A DNA stretch of 64,000 bases from a virus. The DNA lies in IMG/VR virus record IMGVR_UViG_3300042876_000344; one strand, 5' to 3'. The translations under genes were made by a program, and so were the position numbers. The stretch's first letter is position 1. Each line of letters begins with the position of its first letter. The notes under the pieces are model-generated. The model saw nothing but the letters and a program-made list of their open reading frames with translations. It was not told where the DNA came from and did not search any database. Shown piece by piece: positions 47,320 to 58,385 of this stretch.

Positions 47320-49305
47320 TCAACTCCTCATCATCAGTAGCCGCTTTGCCTTTGATGCCAGCCTTGGGATATGCGTCACCCGACGGCCGACTTCCCGATC
47401 ACGCGCCGCAGCTTCCGCTGCGCGATTCACCTGCACCATCGTACTCGCATTCGCGCCAGGATGGCAAGCCCTATATGCCTCTACCTTGTTTTGAATGAAC
47501 ACGTCACGAGGGAGGGCCTCTTCCGCGAACGCGAAATTATGGACCAGATGAACTGCACTATCCAGTACGTCATCACCGTCCTGCTTCGCCGCCTCTTCCG
47601 TGTTTCCGTCCTTCTCTACCGCCGCCTGAATCCCCTGGATCAGGTTCACGCACTCAGAGAAAATCTGCAGTACCGGCAGTACTTCCTGTTTTATCTCCTC
47701 GATTGAGCGCTTGTACTCGGCGTAGGCTGTCACCCCTTGGGTGTCGATCAGGTATCGCGCCACATTCTCGTCGTAAACCGGGGCCCCAGTCAGAGGCTGC
47801 CAGCGCATGTACTCCCGCATCAGGGTGTAGCCGTGCTTCCGTTTCGCGCCACCGCCGGCCGGAATCAGCGCCAGGGCCACCCTTGCGGAAACTGCCGCAT
47901 ACCGCGCCTGCAGGCTCTCCCATGCTTCCTTCGGCGTCATCCCCTGTTCATCATCGTTCGGGGCGAACGCGAACACCGTGCCGGAGCCGAGCACCGCCTC
48001 CATCCCACGCTTGATCTGATCCGCCTCTGATTCTCTACCATCCCGATGGAAACAGTCGTGAGACAGGTAGACACTCATCGCATGTGATGGCAACGCCTGG
48101 AGATCCTTGTACGCCAACTCCGCAACGTGCGCGCCGGCCTCCATCGTCGATAGCCCGCGGAATTTAGATTCCTTATAGAACACGAGTTGCTTATTCGGTT
48201 TCCAACATGCCAGCGTTACGCCGGAGTCATGGCTGTAGCCCCAGTCGAACCCGATCGCCCGCGGCCACCACGGCGCCAGATAGCAGGGGTCGATGACGTG
48301 GACGGCGTTCTCCGGCTCGCTAGCGTGCCGTGTCTTCCGGAACGTCCTGAAGAATGAGCCAGCCACCACGTCGAAATCGCCCAAGCCCATGCGCTTGTAC
48401 TCGATCTCGTCGAACGTCTTCATCGACTCCAGGTTCTGGATGTACTGGCTGTTCTCTTCCAGGAAGTATGGATTGTCCCAAGCTGTCGAGTGGATGGCCA
48501 GCCGCTTCGTACCGGTGATTGGGCAAACGTAGGGCTTACCGTACGGCCATGGCTCAGCGCCACCGTGCGCGTAGCGGAACCGCTTGTTGATCCAGGGGAC
48601 GCCCGGGCCGTTCGGGTTCAGTGTCAGCATGACTTGGCAACGCATCTCCCGTCCGTACTTCGTGCGGTTGCGTTGCTTCAGTCGGACGTACAGCAGCTCC
48701 GTCTCGATGTGGCTGGCTTCCTCGATCACGATCCGAACGAACTGCTTGCCCATGTACTTCTGGTAGGAGTTCGGATCTGCCAGGTGGCCGAAGTACACAG
48801 CCGCCCCAGACGGGAACTCCACCATCATTGGGTTCTCTTTGCAGTCGGCGCCGAGCTTCTTCGCGATGTCGCTGAACCGGCGGTAGTAGTCGTCGAGGTC
48901 GGTGGCGTTCTTGCGGAGCACCAGCGCCTCGTACTTCGGATGGGCGCAGTACGACACGTCGGCCGGTGTGTCGCCGACTGGGCGGAGGTTCCCCCTCAAT
49001 AGAAAACCAAAGGTTGCTTCCGTCTTCGCCGACCCAGCTCCGCCGAACAGCGCGATCTCGTCGGCATCCGACGTCAACGCCTGCGCCTGCGGGCCAGGCT
49101 TGCAGCGGCAGGGGATTTTGTGCTGGTGGTGGAAGACCCGCTTGCCATCGGGCCCGATGTCGTATCCGGCGCACTTCACGTACCGCCAGGCGATCAGGTC
49201 CTCGTCCTGCGCGGCAACGTGCTGCGCGTACTCCTCGCCTTTGAGGTTGGCAAAGAGGACCTGCGGGGGCGGTGCCTTCTTGACCTTCGAGGAAATGCGG
49301 GCCAT
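47320..49305 (-). CDS. terL: terminase large subunit
   Basis: 661 aa. Walker A-like LFGGAGSAKTE. Walker B-like RIVIEEASH. RNaseH-fold nuclease-like IGFDWGYSHDSG. First gene of the late operon. Confidence 0.8.
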   Translation of the reverse strand: MARISSKVKKAPPPQVLFANLKGEEYAQHVAAQDEDLIAWRYVKCAGYDIGPDGKRVFHHQHKIPCRCKPGPQAQALTSDADEIALFGGAGSAKTEATFGFLLRGNLRPVGDTPADVSYCAHPKYEALVLRKNATDLDDYYRRFSDIAKKLGADCKENPMMVEFPSGAAVYFGHLADPNSYQKYMGKQFVRIVIEEASHIETELLYVRLKQRNRTKYGREMRCQVMLTLNPNGPGVPWINKRFRYAHGGAEPWPYGKPYVCPITGTKRLAIHSTAWDNPYFLEENSQYIQNLESMKTFDEIEYKRMGLGDFDVVAGSFFRTFRKTRHASEPENAVHVIDPCYLAPWWPRAIGFDWGYSHDSGVTLACWKPNKQLVFYKESKFRGLSTMEAGAHVAELAYKDLQALPSHAMSVYLSHDCFHRDGRESEADQIKRGMEAVLGSGTVFAFAPNDDEQGMTPKEAWESLQARYAAVSARVALALIPAGGGAKRKHGYTLMREYMRWQPLTGAPVYDENVARYLIDTQGVTAYAEYKRSIEEIKQEVLPVLQIFSECVNLIQGIQAAVEKDGNTEEAAKQDGDDVLDSAVHLVHNFAFAEEALPRDVFIQNKVEAYRACHPGANASTMVQVNRAAEAAARDREVGRRVTHIPRLASKAKRLLMMRS

Positions 49306-49525: not shown

Positions 49526-49869
49526 GCAGACCGTCTCCCCCTTCCCTCCACACCAGCGAAAACAAAGTCGAACGCGACATCATCTGCTTCCTCCAGCAGC
49601 AGACTCCCAACTGGATCATCGACCGGAACCACGTCGGGCTGTTCTTCAACCGCATGGGTACGCCGGTCAAGATCGGTCGGAAAGGCCAGTGCGATTGGCG
49701 AGCGATGCGCGCTGGGCAGTACTTCGAGTTCGAGGTGAAGGCGCCGGGGGAGAAGCCGAAGCCGGCACAGTACGAGTACATGGCGCTGCGCACCCACCAG
49801 GGGATTTTGGTGACGTGGGCCGATTCGCTGGAGATGTTTGAACGGTGGTATAAGGCGGTGGCACTGTGA
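49522..49869 (+). CDS. VRR-NUC-type nuclease
   Basis: GQCDWRAMRAGQYFEFEVKAPGEKPKPAQYEYMALRTHQGILV fits the D...ExK...Q VRR-NUC pattern. Confidence 0.7.
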   Translation: MSRPSPPSLHTSENKVERDIICFLQQQTPNWIIDRNHVGLFFNRMGTPVKIGRKGQCDWRAMRAGQYFEFEVKAPGEKPKPAQYEYMALRTHQGILVTWADSLEMFERWYKAVAL

Positions 49870-50285
49870 CAAGAAAATGGTTCCTCGGCTTGATAGGCCT
49901 CGGGGCGGCAGGGCAGACGACAGTCACAATCTACGCGCCCAAGGATAGGCTCTCTACAGAAAAACCAGTGGACCTGCCCGGAGCCAGTTTGTTCGAGCGC
50001 AACAACGTGACCATCCCGTATCACACGGTCGAACATCAGCCGTACAAGCCCGCCAACGGCGAGTGCCCGGTCTGCGGGACGATGGCGCCGACGTACAGGC
50101 GGATGATGGTCAGTATGGGATTCATGGCCAAATGCAAGCCAACCCCGGGTTATCGCGCGGACGATGTAAGGACTTGGGTTGTGCAGTGCGAGGAGGTTAA
50201 GGATTGGGACGGGCCGCAGTCTCGCACTGTTCGCTGCGCCCACTGCTCGGCGGCGTTCTGGCAGGACGCGGAGGACGTGAAATGA
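49866..50285 (+). CDS. hypothetical Cys-rich protein (GTG start, hydrophobic N-terminus)
   Basis: GTGA coupling. CPVCG...CAHC. Confidence 0.5.
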   Translation: MTRKWFLGLIGLGAAGQTTVTIYAPKDRLSTEKPVDLPGASLFERNNVTIPYHTVEHQPYKPANGECPVCGTMAPTYRRMMVSMGFMAKCKPTPGYRADDVRTWVVQCEEVKDWDGPQSRTVRCAHCSAAFWQDAEDVK

Positions 50286-50542
50286 GTAATCAGAATGGAG
50301 TGTTCCAGTGGCACCCCGGCACAGAGGATGACGGCGGCCACATCGAATGCCGTTCGTCTAGCGGCACAGTGCTGGGGCGAGTCCGCAAGATCCCTAGCCT
50401 CTGCAAGTGGGAGGATATCCCGCACGTCGGCGAGGCGTGGGTGACGCTCCACAAGCTGCACTGGGCCGAGGAAGAGGCAGTGGAGGCAATGGAGCAGTTC
50501 TGGCGCGATGCCGTTGCGACAGTAAAGGAGATGGGCCTATGA
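50282..50542 (+). CDS. hypothetical small protein
   Basis: ATGA coupling. MSNQNGVFQWHPGTEDDGGHIECR... Confidence 0.5.
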   Translation: MSNQNGVFQWHPGTEDDGGHIECRSSSGTVLGRVRKIPSLCKWEDIPHVGEAWVTLHKLHWAEEEAVEAMEQFWRDAVATVKEMGL

Positions 50543-50748: not shown

Positions 50749-50897
50749 CCCGCACACCCCTAGCCCCACTCGATGAACGCCCGATCCGCGTCTGGGCGCT
50801 GGTGCAAGCGATGGTGGACCTGTGCCGGCGCCGGAAGCTGAAGCTGCCGGGGAGGCCGGCGGCGGTAAAGGAGCCATGGAGGGTAGCCAAATGGTAA
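50745..50897 (+). CDS. small hypothetical protein (GTG start, 50 aa)
   Basis: GTGA coupling. VTRTPLAPLDERPIRVWALVQAMVDLCRRRK... Confidence 0.35.
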   Translation: MTRTPLAPLDERPIRVWALVQAMVDLCRRRKLKLPGRPAAVKEPWRVAKW

Positions 50898-52273
50898 CCC
50901 TCCGCCCCTACCAGCAGCAGGCAATCGACGGACTCCGCGCCGCCGTGCGGATCGGGCAGCGCCGACCGATCCTGGTGGCTCCAACCGGCAGCGGCAAGAC
51001 TGTCATCGCTGCATCGCTCATCCAGGGCGCCCAGCAGCGCGGCTCGCAGATCCTGTTCATCGCCCATCGACGCGAACTCATCGCGCAGACGTCGCAGAAA
51101 CTCGACGACATCGGCGCCGATCACGGCATCATCCAGGCGGGGAATACAAGAACCAACACCCTCCCCATCCAGGTAGCATCCGTGCAGACCATGAACCGCC
51201 GGGCATCGTGGTTCACGCCGCAGATCATCATCATAGATGAAGCGCACAGAGCACCCTCGGATAGCTATCAAAAGATAGTCAACGAATTCCCCTCCGCCGT
51301 CGTCATCGGCCTGACCGCCACCCCCTGCCGTACTGACGGCCGCGGCCTGGGGACGTTCTTCAACGCGATCGTCGAGTGCCCCGGTGTCGGCGAGCTCACC
51401 CGTATGGGGTTCCTCGTGCCGGCCGTCACCTACAGCCAGGCGCCGCCGAATCTCAAGGGAGTACACAAGCTGGCCGGCGACTACAACAACGACGAACTCG
51501 CAGCCGTGATGAATGAGCGGAAGCTGGTCGGCAACGTCGTCGACCACTGGCGCAAGTATGCCTTCGGCCAGCCCACTATCGTCTTCGCGGTCAACATCGA
51601 ACACTCCCTCGCCATCACGAAGCAATTCCTAGCCGCCGGAATCTCCTGCGAGCACATCGACGGGGGGACACCGAACGAAATCCGCGACGGGGTATTCTCC
51701 CGCGCGCTGGTCGTCAGCAACGTCGGCGTCTACACAGAGGGCACCGACGTGCCCCGTGTCTCCTGCATCGTCATCGCCCGGCCCACCATGTCCGTCGGGC
51801 TCTACCTGCAGATGGCCGGCCGCGGGCTCCGCCCCTCGCCGGGAAAGACAAACTGCATCATCCTGGACCACGGCGGCTGCGCCCGGATGCACGGGCTGGT
51901 CGGCCAGGAGCGCATCTGGACCCTGACGAACTACGCCGGCATCCGCACTGCCAATGGCCCGGCCATCGACGTGCGCGACACCATCAAGGTCTGTCCGAAG
52001 TGTTTGCTGGTCACTGATCGCGAAGCGAAGAAGTGTGAGTGCGGCTACACGTTCTCCGCCGCATCGCTGAAGTCAGTCAGCGGGGAACTGACTGAAGCGA
52101 GGGCCGTTCACATCCCCACGGAAGATGAGAAGAGAAAGGCATACCAAAGAGCACTATGGATCCAACGAACGAAAACCAAGAAGGACGGGAGCCCATACAG
52201 CCCCCTGTTCGCGAAGATGCGGTTCAAGGCGATGTACGGGACGTGGCCGCCGAAGGAGTGGGACAGGATGTGA
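50891..52273 (+). CDS. SF2 DEAD/DEAH-box (ResIII-type) helicase
   Basis: GGAGGG 7 nt before ATG 50891. Motifs LRPYQQQAI, APTGSGKT, IIIDEAHRA, GLTATP and QMAGRGLR. Confidence 0.85.
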   Translation: MVTLRPYQQQAIDGLRAAVRIGQRRPILVAPTGSGKTVIAASLIQGAQQRGSQILFIAHRRELIAQTSQKLDDIGADHGIIQAGNTRTNTLPIQVASVQTMNRRASWFTPQIIIIDEAHRAPSDSYQKIVNEFPSAVVIGLTATPCRTDGRGLGTFFNAIVECPGVGELTRMGFLVPAVTYSQAPPNLKGVHKLAGDYNNDELAAVMNERKLVGNVVDHWRKYAFGQPTIVFAVNIEHSLAITKQFLAAGISCEHIDGGTPNEIRDGVFSRALVVSNVGVYTEGTDVPRVSCIVIARPTMSVGLYLQMAGRGLRPSPGKTNCIILDHGGCARMHGLVGQERIWTLTNYAGIRTANGPAIDVRDTIKVCPKCLLVTDREAKKCECGYTFSAASLKSVSGELTEARAVHIPTEDEKRKAYQRALWIQRTKTKKDGSPYSPLFAKMRFKAMYGTWPPKEWDRM

Positions 52274-52473
52274 GCCCGTTCTACTGGAGCGGGGACATGC
52301 TGATCCTGAAAGAGACTGAACAGATAGTGGGAGAAATCCTGGACCACAGAGGATTATATGCTGTGCGGGTATGGTCAGGATACGCCGGCAGGTGGACTGA
52401 GGTGACGTTCTGGGCGACCCGACAGGCCGCCATGGCTGCTACGGAGAAGCGGTTCATGGAGTGCAAACGATGA
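52270..52473 (+). CDS. small paralog family member P1 (GTG start)
   Basis: VSPFYWSGDMLILKETEQIVGEI...TFWATRQAAMAATEKRF. Clearly similar to the next gene. Confidence 0.5.
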   Translation: MSPFYWSGDMLILKETEQIVGEILDHRGLYAVRVWSGYAGRWTEVTFWATRQAAMAATEKRFMECKR

Positions 52474-52697
52474 GCGGTAACGAACCAAACAGCGAACCAA
52501 TCTTTTTTTGGAGTGGGGATAACCTCATCCTGAGAGAAACCGGCCAAGTGATTGGCGAAGTCGGAGAAGCCAAGATCTACGGCGCGCAAGCGTGGTCGCC
52601 CAAGACCCAGCGCTGGGATGGGAATCTGACGTTCTGGCCTACACGCGCCTTTGCCATGGCAGATGTAGAGAAGCGAGTTAAAGGAAGTCTACTATGA
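52470..52697 (+). CDS. small paralog family member P2
   Basis: ...FFWSGDNLILRETGQVIGEV...TFWPTRAFAMADVEKRV. ATGA coupling. Confidence 0.55.
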   Translation: MSGNEPNSEPIFFWSGDNLILRETGQVIGEVGEAKIYGAQAWSPKTQRWDGNLTFWPTRAFAMADVEKRVKGSLL

Positions 52698-52885
52698 CCT
52701 GGGACGGCCAATATCTCCTCGACGCCAACCTCAACCGCATCGGCATGGTCTGCATGGTGGGGTATTTCTACGATTCGATCGTCTTCTTCCGGGGGCAGTT
52801 CCACCTTGGGAAGACAGCGACCAACGTTCAGGCCAAGGAAGAGTTGGAGGCGTGGTGGCGGGACGTGCAGGCGGTGAGGCTATGA
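52694..52885 (+). CDS. small protein, short divergent member of the same array (P3)
   Basis: MTWDGQYLLDANLNRIGMV...GKTATNVQAKEELEAWW. ATGA coupling. Confidence 0.5.
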   Translation: MTWDGQYLLDANLNRIGMVCMVGYFYDSIVFFRGQFHLGKTATNVQAKEELEAWWRDVQAVRL

Positions 52886-53091
52886 ACCGCCTTTCATGGA
52901 ACGAAGAAAGCACGGGCAGCCACTTCGACGTCAGCTACGAAGCGCCTCTGCTATTTGCATGGGCGAATGGCATATATCTGGGCACCGCCACAATCGAAGA
53001 CGGGACTGTTGTGCCACCACCCGCACACCCATACGGCGACAACCCGGCTGAATGGGCAGCGGCGATCGCAAAGATGGAAGGGAGACTATGA
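52882..53091 (+). CDS. small hypothetical protein in the array (P4)
   Basis: ATGA coupling at both ends. Confidence 0.45.
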   Translation: MNRLSWNEESTGSHFDVSYEAPLLFAWANGIYLGTATIEDGTVVPPPAHPYGDNPAEWAAAIAKMEGRL

Positions 53092-53288
53092 AGCTCATAC
53101 GTTTCAAGTATCTGTATTTTGAAGATTACATTTTCGTCAACCCTAAGCATGTTCAAGCTGTATATAAATGCAGAAGAGAGGGGGCGGAGAAATTAGACGC
53201 AGCTGAAATGATGATCGGAGGGCAGCCTGTTCCAGTAGCAGAGTGTTTGGAGTCTGTGATTAACCTGCTACAGGAGGTGACACCGTGA
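53088..53288 (+). CDS. small hypothetical protein (AT-richer, unrelated sequence) in the array
   Basis: MKLIRFKYLYFEDYIFVNPKHVQAVYK... Confidence 0.45.
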   Translation: MKLIRFKYLYFEDYIFVNPKHVQAVYKCRREGAEKLDAAEMMIGGQPVPVAECLESVINLLQEVTP

Positions 53289-53494
53289 CCTGGTTCGACA
53301 CCGGCCCACGAATTTTCTCGCTCGACAACAACATGGGCGTAGTCTGGGAAACGCTCTACGACGGATGGCTAGGCTCTGTGACGATCAATGGCATTATTAC
53401 CCGGATGCCTTGCGCCCCCAACGCCGACTCCGCCAAGAAACTCGTCGAAGACTACTGGGAGGCAGCATGGGCACTCAAGCCTCAAAAACCATGA
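53285..53494 (+). CDS. small protein, array member (P6, GTG start)
   Basis: VTWFDTGPRIFSLDNNMGVVWE...NADSAKKLVEDYWEAAW. Confidence 0.5.
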   Translation: MTWFDTGPRIFSLDNNMGVVWETLYDGWLGSVTINGIITRMPCAPNADSAKKLVEDYWEAAWALKPQKP

Positions 53495-53742
53495 GCCCCT
53501 TCAAATGGACCAACGACCCCTGCAAGACCGGCCGCACCTGGCGACTCTCCCTCCGCGCCACCGGCCAGATCGTCGGCCGCGTTCTCACTGAGCCGCTCGA
53601 CGACGGCAGCATGGCGTTCACGGCGCTGATCTTCAAGCGTGGATGGGAATCACTTGGGAGTTATCTCACATGGCAGCAGGCAAAGAAAACAATTCAGAAC
53701 GAAATCTCTGGGCGCCTGGAATCCCCTACGACAAGTGGCTGA
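53491..53742 (+). CDS. small paralog family member (P7)
   Basis: MSPFKWTNDPCKTGRTWRLSLRATGQIVGRVL...LGSYLTWQQAKKTIQNEI. Confidence 0.55.
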   Translation: MSPFKWTNDPCKTGRTWRLSLRATGQIVGRVLTEPLDDGSMAFTALIFKRGWESLGSYLTWQQAKKTIQNEISGRLESPTTSG

Positions 53743-53915
53743 TGATGCAGAAGCATTGCACGCCGGCCGAACTTGAAGAGTATAGGAAGGAGCAAGAACG
53801 TGCCAGAATCACCGAATCTTCTAAACGCGATGTTCGGAAGAAATCAATGCGAGGACGACCAGTCGATCCCCAACTCCCAATACATGGGGCCGACCGCACG
53901 CTGGGTTCTGAATAA
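53742..53915 (+). CDS. small hypothetical protein (57 aa); its 3' half is probably overprinted by the next gene
   Basis: ATG shares a base with the upstream TGA. Third-position GC is high only in the first half. Confidence 0.3.
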   Translation: MMQKHCTPAELEEYRKEQERARITESSKRDVRKKSMRGRPVDPQLPIHGADRTLGSE

Positions 53916-54096
53916 AACACCAACGCCCCGCCGCTTCCCCGTCGCCATCCAGCCGCGGCGGATCATGCAGGTGCAAGCGCAGGTCAGACGGAAGAAGAAA
54001 ATAGAAGAAGACAGGAAAAAGCGCATCGCGGAGTGGTTAGCAATAGAGATGTTCGGAGAGCCCGGCCGGTGCCCCTGGTGGCGGAGGTGGCTATGA
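53830..54096 (+). CDS. small basic protein (hypothetical); start uncertain
   Basis: Frame of track ORF 53773-54096. Third-position GC becomes high after about 53840. Candidate starts are GTG 53800, ATG 53830 and ATG 53886. Confidence 0.4.
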   Translation: MFGRNQCEDDQSIPNSQYMGPTARWVLNKTPTPRRFPVAIQPRRIMQVQAQVRRKKKIEEDRKKRIAEWLAIEMFGEPGRCPWWRRWL

Positions 54097-54323
54097 ATAG
54101 CCCATCCGCACCTCGTTTTACCTGGAAGACGAAAAAAGACACGCGAGTTCTATACTCCACCAGCAAAAAACAGCTTGGTGCCGTATGCCACGATCGCGCC
54201 TCATTCTACTTGATTGCCTATGTCGGGAGGAGAGATCTCTACATCGGGAGTTATCCGACAGAAAATCGAGCCCGAGCCGCACTCATCCGGTGGTGGCTGA
54301 GGATCGTGAGGACTGAACTATGA
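54093..54323 (+). CDS. small paralog family member (P8)
   Basis: ...PRFTWKTKKDTRVLYSTSKKQLGAV...LYIGSYPTENRARAALIRWW. Confidence 0.55.
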   Translation: MNSPSAPRFTWKTKKDTRVLYSTSKKQLGAVCHDRASFYLIAYVGRRDLYIGSYPTENRARAALIRWWLRIVRTEL

Positions 54324-55864: not shown

Positions 55865-57856
55865 ATGACAGCCATGCCCTCCCACTCATCCTCCCCCATG
55901 CTCGAATGGGCCCTCCGCTACGCCGCCATGGGCTGGCCCGTCTTCCGGCTTCAGGGGAAAAAACCCGTCAAGGACACCCACGGATTCAAGGACGCCACGA
56001 CCGATCCCGACCAGATCCGCGACTGGTGGCGCGTCAACTACAACATCGGGATCCACTGCAGTCAGTTCTGGGTCCTCGACGTCGATCCCGCGAAGGGTGG
56101 CTTCACATCTCTCCAATCCTTCCCTGAAAAACTCGATACCCTCACCCAGATCACGGGCTCCGGCGGCCGGCACTACCTCTTCCAGAACCCCGGCTTCCAC
56201 GTCAGCAACTCATCCGAATCCATCGCCCCTGGCGTCGACGTTCGAGGATCGGACGGCTACATCGTCGCCTGCCCCTCCATCCACCCGGATACCCGCAAAC
56301 CCTACGAATGGTACGGGACCAAGGACCCCACTCCCCAGGACATCAAACCCGCCCCTCAGTGGCTCCTCGACAAACTGACGAAACCAGCCCCGCCGGCGCC
56401 CATCACCATTTCCGAGAAAATCTCCAAGGGCCAGCGCCACAAAACCCTCACCTCTCTCGCCGGCACCATGCGACGCCGCGGCTGCACTCCCGAGGAAATC
56501 CTCGCAGCTATCCGCGTCACCAACTCCACCCGCTGTGACCCGCCCTACAACGACAAACACCTCCAGCAGATCGCCAACAGCATGGAGAAATACGCACCGG
56601 CTTTATCCCCCGCGGAAACGCCGGTCGAGGTCTCAACCCTCCCCGACTGGACCAAAATGCTCCAGCGCAATGACAAGGGCAAACCCATCCCCAACGTCGT
56701 CAACGCCTCTCTCCCCCTCAACTTCGACCCCGCCTTCGCCGACGCCATCCGCTTCAACCTCCTCCGATCCTCCATCGAAATCTCCCGCAACATCCCCGAG
56801 ATGCTCGTCTACAACGCCCCCTGCGAATGGGCCGACAAACACGACATCGCCTACGCCGCATGGTGCCAAACCAAGGGAATCCAGATCGCCCCCACCACCG
56901 CAGCCCACGCCGCCATCCTTATCTCCAACCTCAGATCCTTTCACCCCGTCCAGGAATACCTGAACTCTCTCGTCTGGGACGGCGTTCCGCGGATCACCAC
57001 CTGGCTCAACGCCTACTGCGGCGTCGAGGACAACCTCTATACCCAGACCGTCGGCCGCAAATGGCTTATCTCCGCCGTCAACCGCGCCCTCCACCCCGGA
57101 TGCAAGGTCGACTCCTGCCTCATCCTCGAAGGCAAACAGAACATCGGCAAATCCCGGGCCCTCAACATCCTCGGCGGAGACTGGTACACCGACCAGATCA
57201 AGGATCTCGACTCCAACGACGCCGCCCTCCAGGCTTCCCGCGTCTGGATCGTCGAAATCGGCGAGCTCGACGCCTTCCGCAAATCCGAAACTACCGCCTT
57301 CAAGGCCTTCCTCTCACGCCAAATCGACCAGTTCCGACCCGCCTACGGCCGCCACGTCCAAACATTCCCCCGCCAGTGCGTCTTCGCCGGCACCACCAAC
57401 CAGGATCAGTACCTCCACGACGAAACAGGGAATAGGCGTTTCTGGCCCGTACGCTGCCACCAGATCCTCCAGGACGCCCTCGCCACCGATAGGGACCAAC
57501 TCTGGGCCGAGGCCGTCGTAGCGGCCAATTCCGGCGAACCCTGCTGGATCGAGGACGCCGACGTCATCACCGCCGCCACCGGCGAAGCCAATATCCGCTT
57601 CATCGACGACGCCTGGGCCGAAAAACTTATCCCTTGGATGGTCGACCGCTTCGCCATGGGCGACAGATTCGTCACCACCTCTCAACTCCTCGAATCCTGC
57701 CTCGACATGCGCACCAAGGACTGGACCCAGCGCGATCAGGACCGCGTGGCTAAAATCCTACGCCAACTCCACTTCGCGCGCCGCAAATTCCGCTCCGGTC
57801 AATCAGTCGTCTGGGGATGGCATCCAACCTCAGACTCCACCTCCCCATTCGACTAG
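55865..57856 (+). CDS. bifunctional Prim-Pol primase fused to a VirE/D5-like P-loop helicase domain
   Basis: Prim-Pol blocks GWPVFRL..GKKP..KDAT, VLDVD and GGRHYLF. PriCT-like GQRHKTLTSLAGTMRRRG. P-loop LEGKQNIGKS. Confidence 0.9.
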   Translation: MTAMPSHSSSPMLEWALRYAAMGWPVFRLQGKKPVKDTHGFKDATTDPDQIRDWWRVNYNIGIHCSQFWVLDVDPAKGGFTSLQSFPEKLDTLTQITGSGGRHYLFQNPGFHVSNSSESIAPGVDVRGSDGYIVACPSIHPDTRKPYEWYGTKDPTPQDIKPAPQWLLDKLTKPAPPAPITISEKISKGQRHKTLTSLAGTMRRRGCTPEEILAAIRVTNSTRCDPPYNDKHLQQIANSMEKYAPALSPAETPVEVSTLPDWTKMLQRNDKGKPIPNVVNASLPLNFDPAFADAIRFNLLRSSIEISRNIPEMLVYNAPCEWADKHDIAYAAWCQTKGIQIAPTTAAHAAILISNLRSFHPVQEYLNSLVWDGVPRITTWLNAYCGVEDNLYTQTVGRKWLISAVNRALHPGCKVDSCLILEGKQNIGKSRALNILGGDWYTDQIKDLDSNDAALQASRVWIVEIGELDAFRKSETTAFKAFLSRQIDQFRPAYGRHVQTFPRQCVFAGTTNQDQYLHDETGNRRFWPVRCHQILQDALATDRDQLWAEAVVAANSGEPCWIEDADVITAATGEANIRFIDDAWAEKLIPWMVDRFAMGDRFVTTSQLLESCLDMRTKDWTQRDQDRVAKILRQLHFARRKFRSGQSVVWGWHPTSDSTSPFD

Positions 57857-57897
57857 AGGCCAAGAGGCCAAGAGGCCAAGAGGAACATGAGGAACAT
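57856..57897. repeat. tandem repeats GAGGCCAA x3 followed by GAGGAACAT x2, starting at the primase stop codon
   Basis: Read directly. Confidence 0.85.
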
Positions 57898-58143
57898 TTG
57901 TTACCCTCCGCAAGTCATTGATTCATTACCTATGTACCCTATGTTCCTCTTGTTCCCCCTATATACTGATACATTATACATATCGTATACCGCCTACGGT
58001 ACACCACCACCCCCCCCCCTGTTCCCCACGCCTCTAGGGAAATGGGTGCAACATAGAGGAACGGAGGAACAAATCTCGCAACCTCCAAAGAATCAATTAG
58101 ATACAGACTGCAGGCAAAGAGGAACATCTGTTCCCCGTTCCTC
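57880..58143. repeat. iteron-like cluster: 10 copies of G(A/G)GGAAC in both orientations, flanking an AT-rich stretch (57961-57990) and a C9 run
   Basis: GAGGAAC on the plus strand at 57880, 57889, 58056, 58064 and 58119. GAGGAAC on the minus strand at 57943-57949 and 58137-58143. GGGGAAC on the minus strand at 57952-57958, 58021-58027 and 58130-58136. Confidence 0.75.
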
Positions 58144-58385
58144 TCAAATAGGGGACCCATCGCCAAAATGGACCAGGCAGTACCCAGTCCGTCGTACCTC
58201 CGCCCAGGCAGGCCTAGCTAAAACGCGCGCAAGGGGACCCGTGCACGCGCGGGGGTAGGGGGAGGGGGTGGTCTCGCGCGCAGGACATTGCCCTAGTCTT
58301 GGACATGTCCTGGACTACAGACAGAGCAGGACTACAGTCAAGACACGAGACAAGACACGAGACCAGTCGGTTCCGATAATGGTGA

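Follow-up and report, generated by a model that had tools for sequence, protein, structure and literature searches.

A family of small, translationally coupled proteins in a phage early operon and its tentative link to AP2 DNA-binding domains

Gene content of the early operon

The window analysed here, a 64,000-nt stretch of DNA from IMG/VR virus record IMGVR_UViG_3300042876_000344, is a phage genome of about 60% GC in which the structural genes occupy the minus strand, headed by the terminase large subunit (47320–49305), and an early/replication operon occupies the plus strand from about 49.4 kb. A series of small genes in this operon begins at the stop codon of a superfamily 2 (SF2) DNA helicase gene and runs in the order P1, P2, P3, P4, P5, P6, P7, P7b, P7c, P8, the Cys-rich P9 and P10, followed further 3′ by genes for a helix-turn-helix protein and a primase-polymerase (55865–57856). 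A first-pass annotation, made from the letters of the DNA alone, had described a tandem array of at least six diverged paralogues directly after the helicase gene. Six members (P1, P2, P3, P6, P7 and P8) do lie there, but the array is not contiguous, with P4, P5, P7b and P7c sitting between members, and a probable seventh member, P0, was found upstream of the helicase gene. The helicase and the family members are as follows.

50282–50542, plus strand: P0, probable seventh family member, 86 residues; upstream of the helicase gene and ATGA-coupled to the preceding gene (49866–50285)
50822–52273, plus strand: SF2 DNA helicase; 35–39% identity to phage helicases by tblastn, with Pfam DEAD/ResIII/Helicase_C matches in the orthologue from locus L002
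52270–52473, plus strand: P1, family member, 67 residues; GTG start overlapping the helicase stop codon
52470–52697, plus strand: P2, family member, 75 residues; recent paralogue of P1
52694–52885, plus strand: P3, family member, 63 residues; linked by hhalign to the P8 subfamily, P7 and P6
53285–53494, plus strand: P6, family member, 69 residues; GTG start; subfamily closest to AP2
53491–53742, plus strand: P7, family member, 83 residues, basic; 3′-terminal ~24 codons overlapped by P7b in a different frame
54093–54323, plus strand: P8, family member, 76 residues, isoelectric point (pI) 10.5

The earlier statement that nearly all junctions are ATGA or GTGA overlaps with translational coupling was borne out, as 4-nt start/stop overlaps were found at helicase/P1, P1/P2, P2/P3, P3/P4, P4/P5, P5/P6, P6/P7, P7c/P8 and P8/P9. 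Shine-Dalgarno-like GGAG or AGGAG sequences precede most starts, P7 being the exception. No near match to the window was found among GenBank phages, no close relative among 185,579 representative genomes, and no tRNA within the window itself. Orthologues were drawn from IMG/VR (L001), from exact-protein look-up (L002–L005) and from metagenomes (L008–L010 and L015).

Sequence and structural evidence for a single family

Subfamily alignments were built from these orthologues, enriched with database homologues and compared using hhalign, with 91 reversed-alignment comparisons as the null (maximum score 15.2) and seven unrelated small-gene families from the same operon as controls. P1 and P2, which had been called obviously homologous in the first-pass annotation, are 49% identical over 59 residues. 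Beyond this pair, four links connect the subfamilies: P1/P2 to P7 (hhalign probability 93.6%, E 2e-7), P8 to P3 (74%, E 3e-5), P7 to P3 (65%, E 6e-5) and P3 to P6 (57%, E 1e-4), with scores of 26–40 versus the null maximum of 15.2. Similarity thus extends past P1 and P2 to P7, P3, P8 and P6. The control families were at noise level except for one Cys-motif pair. Other subfamily pairs taken singly were likewise at noise level, yet their alignments were full-length, and the ten pairs that the five subfamilies form all ranked within the top 13 of 91. When P6 was compared to the pooled other subfamilies, an alignment of 68 columns was obtained (63%, E 7e-5).

In an alignment of 30 sequences, three residues never vary (W6, G21 and A54 in P1 numbering), and an M-[ST]-P-F-x-W N-terminus is common to P1, P7 and many P6 orthologues. 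All P7 orthologues were the top non-self HMMER matches of the P1/P2 profile, and the P8 orthologues in L002 and L005 contain a P1-like FTWKEQGTMLIL...TLGYV motif. Iterative HMMER searches started from P1 recovered only P2 in the window, and with all loci included they added P7 at marginal E-values and nothing further. HMMER alone is therefore insufficient to establish the family, pairs other than P1–P2 have also diverged too far for pairwise BLAST, and profile–profile comparison and structure prediction were needed.

AlphaFold2 models were made for P6 from a P6-only alignment and for P1 from an alignment without any P6 sequences. The P6 model (predicted local distance difference test score, pLDDT, 90.5) has strands at residues 3–7, 10–13, 18–23, 27–34 and 37–40 and a helix at 47–63, and the P1 model (pLDDT 90.8) has strands at 4–7, 11–14, 19–26, 29–36 and 46–48 and a helix at 51–66. 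The disjoint alignments thus gave an identical order of elements, five strands and a helix, and the domain is predicted to consist of an N-terminal Trp-containing β-hairpin, a three-stranded sheet and a C-terminal helix. The best structural matches of the P6 model were small uncharacterized phage proteins in BFVD (e.g. A0A6J5TEQ4, A0A6J5SJE8 and A0A3G2KGZ5), with template modelling (TM) scores of 0.73–0.78, root-mean-square deviations of 1.7–2.6 Å over the whole 69 residues and Foldseek probabilities of 0.99–1.00; these proteins differ from P6 in sequence (10–16% identity, E only 0.02–0.2) and have no known function, and therefore do not aid annotation. HNH/AP2 endonucleases were also among the BFVD matches. 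Foldseek matches to PTB domains, double-stranded RNA-binding domains, lipocalin fragments and Xp10 P7 were at noise level and were discarded.

A narrower grouping, in which only P1, P2 and P7 are homologous and P3, P6 and P8 merely resemble them in being of similar size, rich in strands and ending in an amphipathic helix, with any AP2 likeness arising by chance, would account for HMMER alone linking just P1/P2 to P7 (E ~3e-3 among 3,398 open reading frames, ORFs), for the noise-level scores of P1–P8, P1–P3, P1–P6 and P7–P8, and for bridging hhalign links of 57–74%, none above 95%. It fits poorly with the margin of the four links over the reversed null, with full-length alignments of 57–68 columns, with the three invariant residues and common N-terminus, and with the agreement in topology between independent models. 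A superfamily hidden Markov model (HMM) additionally recovered, from 1.84 billion cluster representatives, extra proteins that mix features of several subfamilies. We consider the narrower grouping improbable and conclude that P1, P2, P3, P6, P7 and P8 very probably constitute one family of ~65–85 residues, in agreement with the six diverged paralogues originally proposed.

Of all the window ORFs outside the array, P0 matched the family HMM best (E 0.035). It aligned to the P8 subfamily over 68 columns (hhalign 48%, E 1.8e-4), on which basis it is regarded as a probable seventh member, and to the pooled non-P6 alignment over 66 columns (E 4e-4), whereas reversed controls gave E-values of at least 0.07, mostly 0.1–0.9. 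A P0 orthologue was found in L002. P4 and P5 were rejected as members, since neither hhalign nor HMMER linked them to a subfamily, and no similarity to the family was found for P7b or P7c.

Rarity of the family and its relationship to AP2 domains

Scans of Pfam, PHROGs and NCBIfam with single members, the 30 alignment members and subfamily consensuses left the family uncatalogued. When 5.8 billion proteins were searched with word seeding, five were retrieved by the P1/P2 profile and 23 by the superfamily profile, all from similar contigs. Exhaustive HMMER searching of the 1.84 billion cluster representatives yielded 37 proteins at E<1e-3. Fifteen of these are short and represent family members, including divergent ones of other phage lineages and one with two domains. 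The remaining 22 are longer, among them P0049, a 772-residue protein with six tandem family domains; a 132-residue protein, P0041, carries two copies of the domain. Eight of the other 21 long matches were scanned, and seven of them hit Pfam AP2 (PF00847); the eighth, P0034, and the unscanned long matches were found on inspection to have the same AP2-type repeat unit. Several long matches are HNH homing endonucleases, including HNH endonucleases with 3–4 AP2 repeats, and no other repeat family appeared among the 37. Single AP2 units score just 9–18 bits each, and the significance of the AP2 proteins in HMMER arises because their repeats are summed.

P0049 (L039, 4019–6337) carries its approximately six tandem domains behind an N-terminal region of ~230 residues, for which only weak TraP/IcmG-like matches (E 0.005–0.01) were obtained, and its neighbours are unannotated small ORFs.

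Compared directly to AP2 units from the HMMER-matched proteins, P6 gave an hhalign probability of 96% (E 4e-9). To lessen selection bias, a second set of 120 units picked solely for AP2 similarity was split into non-plant and plant halves. Against the non-plant half, matches were obtained for P6 (87%, E 3.7e-6), the pooled non-P6 subfamilies (41%, E 2.8e-4) and P8 (E 3e-3), while controls against this second set gave E-values of at least 0.026 and reversed P6 of at least 0.057. Across AP2 sets, the pooled other subfamilies scored 41–80%. The match spans strands 3–5 and the helix of the models, which is the whole AP2 core, and the first two strands therefore represent an N-terminal extension. 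The last four elements of both AlphaFold2 models are strand-strand-strand-helix, and the top Pfam match of P0041 was AP2 (15 bits, E 0.03). The family and AP2 domains of the phage, prokaryote and protist type (PF00847, as in HNH homing endonucleases and AP2-repeat proteins) are predicted to share a three-stranded antiparallel sheet followed by an amphipathic helix, have in common an in-register motif, G-V-x-W ... W-x-A-x-V ... (L)G ... A-x-x-x-V/Y, and are both prone to tandem multi-copy arrangement. The family differs in its extra N-terminal Trp-containing hairpin, giving five strands in total, in lacking conserved basic sheet residues, with several members being acidic, and in being encoded mostly as separate coupled genes rather than as domains of one protein.

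Several results weigh against this relationship. No significant match was obtained with a plant-type AP2 profile (built from five sequences or from 63 database units), none of the 30 members and seven subfamily consensuses matched Pfam AP2 (gathering threshold 33.3 bits) even at E≤10, and a profile search of PDB sequences gave zero matches at E≤10. Foldseek searches of the PDB with both models likewise gave no significant solved structure, all E-values being at least 0.2; the AP2 structures 6sy0 and 7wq5 were among these matches, with TM scores of 0.42–0.51 and non-significant E-values of 0.4–4.9. We judge genuine, if remote, AP2 relatedness to be probable, and we classify the proteins as AP2-like without placing them in PF00847. 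The first-pass annotation had stated that nothing identifies the activity of these proteins; the specific similarity of the family profile to AP2-type DNA-binding domains now provides a testable lead.

Two other assignments were considered from motif resemblance, YegP/DUF1508 and WGR, and found no support in searches bar a weak DUF1508 match of P0041 (E 0.13).

The integrase arm-type DNA-binding domains (N-termini of lambda Int and Tn916 Int; Arm-DNA-bind, AP2 clan), which are common in phages, belong to the same class of small sheet-plus-helix DNA-binding folds. Lambda Int (5j0n) appeared low in the Foldseek list, and the family differs from these domains in having no significant sequence or structure match to them, no recombinase domain and no integrase context.

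The multi-domain matches also bear on the origin of the array, as the genes could be remnants or a domesticated derivative of a multi-AP2 homing endonuclease or repeat protein that has been split into ORFs and is perhaps partly decaying. The six-domain and two-domain proteins, the HNH endonucleases with 3–4 AP2 repeats among the profile matches and weak PHROG matches to HNH endonuclease families (E 0.09–0.2) would all be compatible with such an origin. Each gene nevertheless has its own start codon, a coupling overlap and usually a Shine-Dalgarno sequence, the separate genes are kept under purifying selection in at least eight relatives, and unrelated genes lie between the members. Unlike in HNH-AP2 homing endonucleases, no HNH, NUMOD or other nuclease domain was found by Pfam, PHROGs and NCBIfam scans in the members or in adjacent genes. 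A derivation of this kind thus appears very improbable.

Copy number, module shuffling and selection in related phages

Every relative has a different set of genes between helicase and primase. P2 is missing from L005; P4 and P5 are present only in the window and L005, being absent in L002, L008, L009 and L015; L002 has a 119-residue insert after P2, and L015 a transmembrane minigene after P1. L010 and L001 encode other genes together with a divergent P7-like member. In L009, a single hybrid gene is identical to P1 up to TGGAGCGGGGA and identical to P2 beyond it, and is thus the product of a crossover between the two paralogues at this point. The earlier description of locally amplified early genes is supported, and the number of copies varies between related phages. 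In more distant loci, a P3-like gene is coupled to a P7-like gene (L040), and a 68-residue member adjoins the two-domain protein in an AT-rich phage (L042); tandem amplification therefore recurs wherever the domain occurs.

The L015 minigene (~470–675; MTGDMTLIFLFGVLIGAAVFVVIMD...) is predicted to encode a single-pass membrane protein and occupies the position held by P2 in the window. A gene at 1867–2085 of L005 combines the N-terminal extension of the P8 orthologue with the C-terminal half of P9 (ACDNCLFARGYSCCAHP...), a chimera that further illustrates how modules are shuffled in the operon. Relatives also have, immediately 5′ of the helicase gene, a 784-residue gene (L001, 3694–6048) with sequence motifs that suggest a fusion of an SNF2-like helicase and a DNA methyltransferase, and a radical-SAM gene (Pfam Radical_SAM/Fer4_12) lies in the same early operon (L002, 6592–7170). 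These two genes may represent DNA-modification functions that vary among relatives.

Ratios of nonsynonymous to synonymous substitution rates (dN/dS) were calculated by the Nei-Gojobori method between window genes and their orthologues. Values were 0.16–0.59 for the family genes (0.16–0.30 for P1), 0.07–0.16 for the helicase and 0.08–0.73 for unrelated small neighbour genes. The family genes are real and under purifying selection, and their orthologue dN/dS values do not point to an arms race at the level of whole genes. The proposal of fast-diverging, arms-race genes is accordingly not upheld, as the family values exceed those of the helicase but are no different from those of the small neighbours.

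These data are pertinent to the possibility that the paralogues are protein-binding host-takeover or anti-defence factors, in which an AP2-like scaffold has been re-used and different copies target different host proteins or defence systems. Such a role would suit the location in an early operon of small genes, the differences in copy number and the mosaic gene complement seen in close relatives, the repeated amplification of the domain in unrelated phages, the acidic or neutral character of P2, P3 and P6, and dN/dS values ~2–5 times that of the helicase. Those values are nevertheless below 1 and no higher than in unrelated neighbour genes, no described anti-defence or takeover protein was matched in Pfam, PHROGs or NCBIfam, and the only positive homology signal is to a DNA-binding domain. 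We regard such a protein-binding role, the main alternative to the nucleic-acid-binding or regulatory one proposed below, as rather unlikely.

Interspersed genes and other features of the region

The genes located between or next to the family members, none of which belongs to the family, are as follows.

52882–53091, plus strand: P4, interspersed small acidic gene, 69 residues, no detectable family membership
53088–53288, plus strand: P5, interspersed small gene, 66 residues, non-member
53670–53915, plus strand: P7b, unrelated small gene, 81 residues if the start is ATG 53670
53884–54096, plus strand: P7c, small basic gene unrelated to the family; the start is uncertain, with ATG 53884 in agreement with the orthologue in L005
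54320–54586: P9, Cys-rich, non-family

P7b most likely starts at ATG 53670 and so overlaps the 3′ end of P7 (53670–53742, about 73 nt). Its N-terminal motif, NLW-x-PGIPY-x-KWLMMQ, lies upstream of the start implied by the earlier reading and is kept in L001, L010 (1386–1670) and L015. The disordered tail of P7 (GRLESPTTSG) corresponds to the other reading frame of this N-terminal stretch. An ESPTRSGS tail is also found on some P6 orthologues (P0011, P0022 and that of L010), where P7b comes after P6, and the P7-type tail is kept in L002 and L005, where P7b is absent. This distribution suggests a mosaic junction inside the P7/P7b overlap. The P7c orthologue is located at 2357–2551 of L005, with the alignment beginning at RRFPV.

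P9 shares a Cys motif with the protein encoded upstream of P0 (MTRKWFLG..., 49866–50285; hhalign 76%, E 2e-5). An 18-nt direct repeat, CTCA(G/A)ATAGGGGACCCAT, occurs in two 94% identical copies, one at the 3′ end of P10 (54782–54799) and the other 3.4 kb downstream, past the primase gene (58143–58160); this repeat may represent either the end of a gene that was duplicated or a site for regulation or recombination. Directly 3′ of the primase-polymerase gene lies a 21-nt inverted repeat (57877–57952; 86% complementary, 34-nt loop), which may be a terminator or an origin-like hairpin.

Possible function of the array

In transcription factors and in phage homing endonucleases, AP2 serves to bind DNA, and the AP2-like core is the sole positive functional lead for the family. 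From the sequence comparisons, we tentatively propose, as the most likely reading, that the array may encode diversified small proteins that bind nucleic acids or act as regulators. The strongly basic P8 (pI 10.5, net charge +10, with values mostly from +9 to +11 in its subfamily and +5 in L015) and P7 (pI 9.7) fit nucleic-acid binding, and the tandem multi-domain proteins P0049 and P0041 may be seen as mirroring AP2 arrays, in support of the proposal. The copy-number dynamics and the purifying selection are also counted in its favour.

Other properties of the proteins speak against such a role. P1 is neutral and P2, P3 and P6 are acidic (pI 4.7–5.6, with P6 at 4.7), and because several members are acidic, a nucleic-acid-binding or regulatory role is weakly supported. 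No basic position is conserved family-wide in the 30-sequence alignment; the residues that are conserved (Trp, Gly, Ala and hydrophobic positions) are non-basic and look structural, and the sheet Trp residues are conserved in P6. A search of 49–64 kb for repeated DNA motifs that could serve as binding sites or iterons gave only short, chance-level repeats.

The members appear to be co-transcribed and translationally coupled in the early/replication operon, and the family grows and shrinks through recombination between paralogues and module exchange with related phages. On the proposed regulatory reading, each paralogue would have its own target. P8 and P7 would be the best candidates for direct binding of DNA or RNA, while the neutral or acidic P1, P2, P3 and P6 may have shifted to protein binding or act as partners of the basic members.

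A precedent by analogy for phage AP2 proteins acting as sequence-specific repressors may be found in the CasPRs, CapR and AP2 proteins of Bacillota prophages that function as anti-CRISPR transcriptional silencers by binding within cas genes (bioRxiv 10.64898/2026.02.23.707548). The CasPR family silences host immunity genes and has diversified toward different DNA targets, and its members depend on conserved arginines in the AP2 domain as well as on an N-terminal, zinc-finger-like CapR domain with a conserved Cys cluster (bioRxiv 10.64898/2026.02.23.707548). CasPRs and the array proteins are alike in being phage-encoded and in having an AP2-type module, AP2-like in the array. In contrast to CasPRs as described in the preprint, the array proteins are single-domain, 63–83 residues long, have 0–2 Cys residues without the CapR Cys cluster, and belong to a phage lineage of 60% GC rather than to Bacillota prophages.

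A bolder version of the regulatory reading, to which we assign little probability, is that the array is a combinatorial DNA-recognition kit of diversified, separately translated AP2-like readers. Single paralogues or basic/acidic hetero-oligomers would then bind distinct sites and silence host genes such as defence loci, in CasPR-like fashion but without CapR, and new specificities would come from duplication and recombination within the array. An anti-defence role is unsupported and speculative.

Implications

The analysis defines a previously uncatalogued family of small-protein domains, represented by a few dozen sequence clusters among billions of proteins, and ties it tentatively to the AP2 DNA-binding superfamily. 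While the family itself is well supported, its biochemical role is plausible but unproven. The array clearly exemplifies a family of phage minigenes whose membership rises and falls through recombination between paralogues, and the same domain is found both as coupled single-domain genes and as 2–6 tandem domains per protein. If the members turn out to bind specific sequences or to inhibit host factors, the array would be a natural setting in which to examine the diversification of small regulators by phages.

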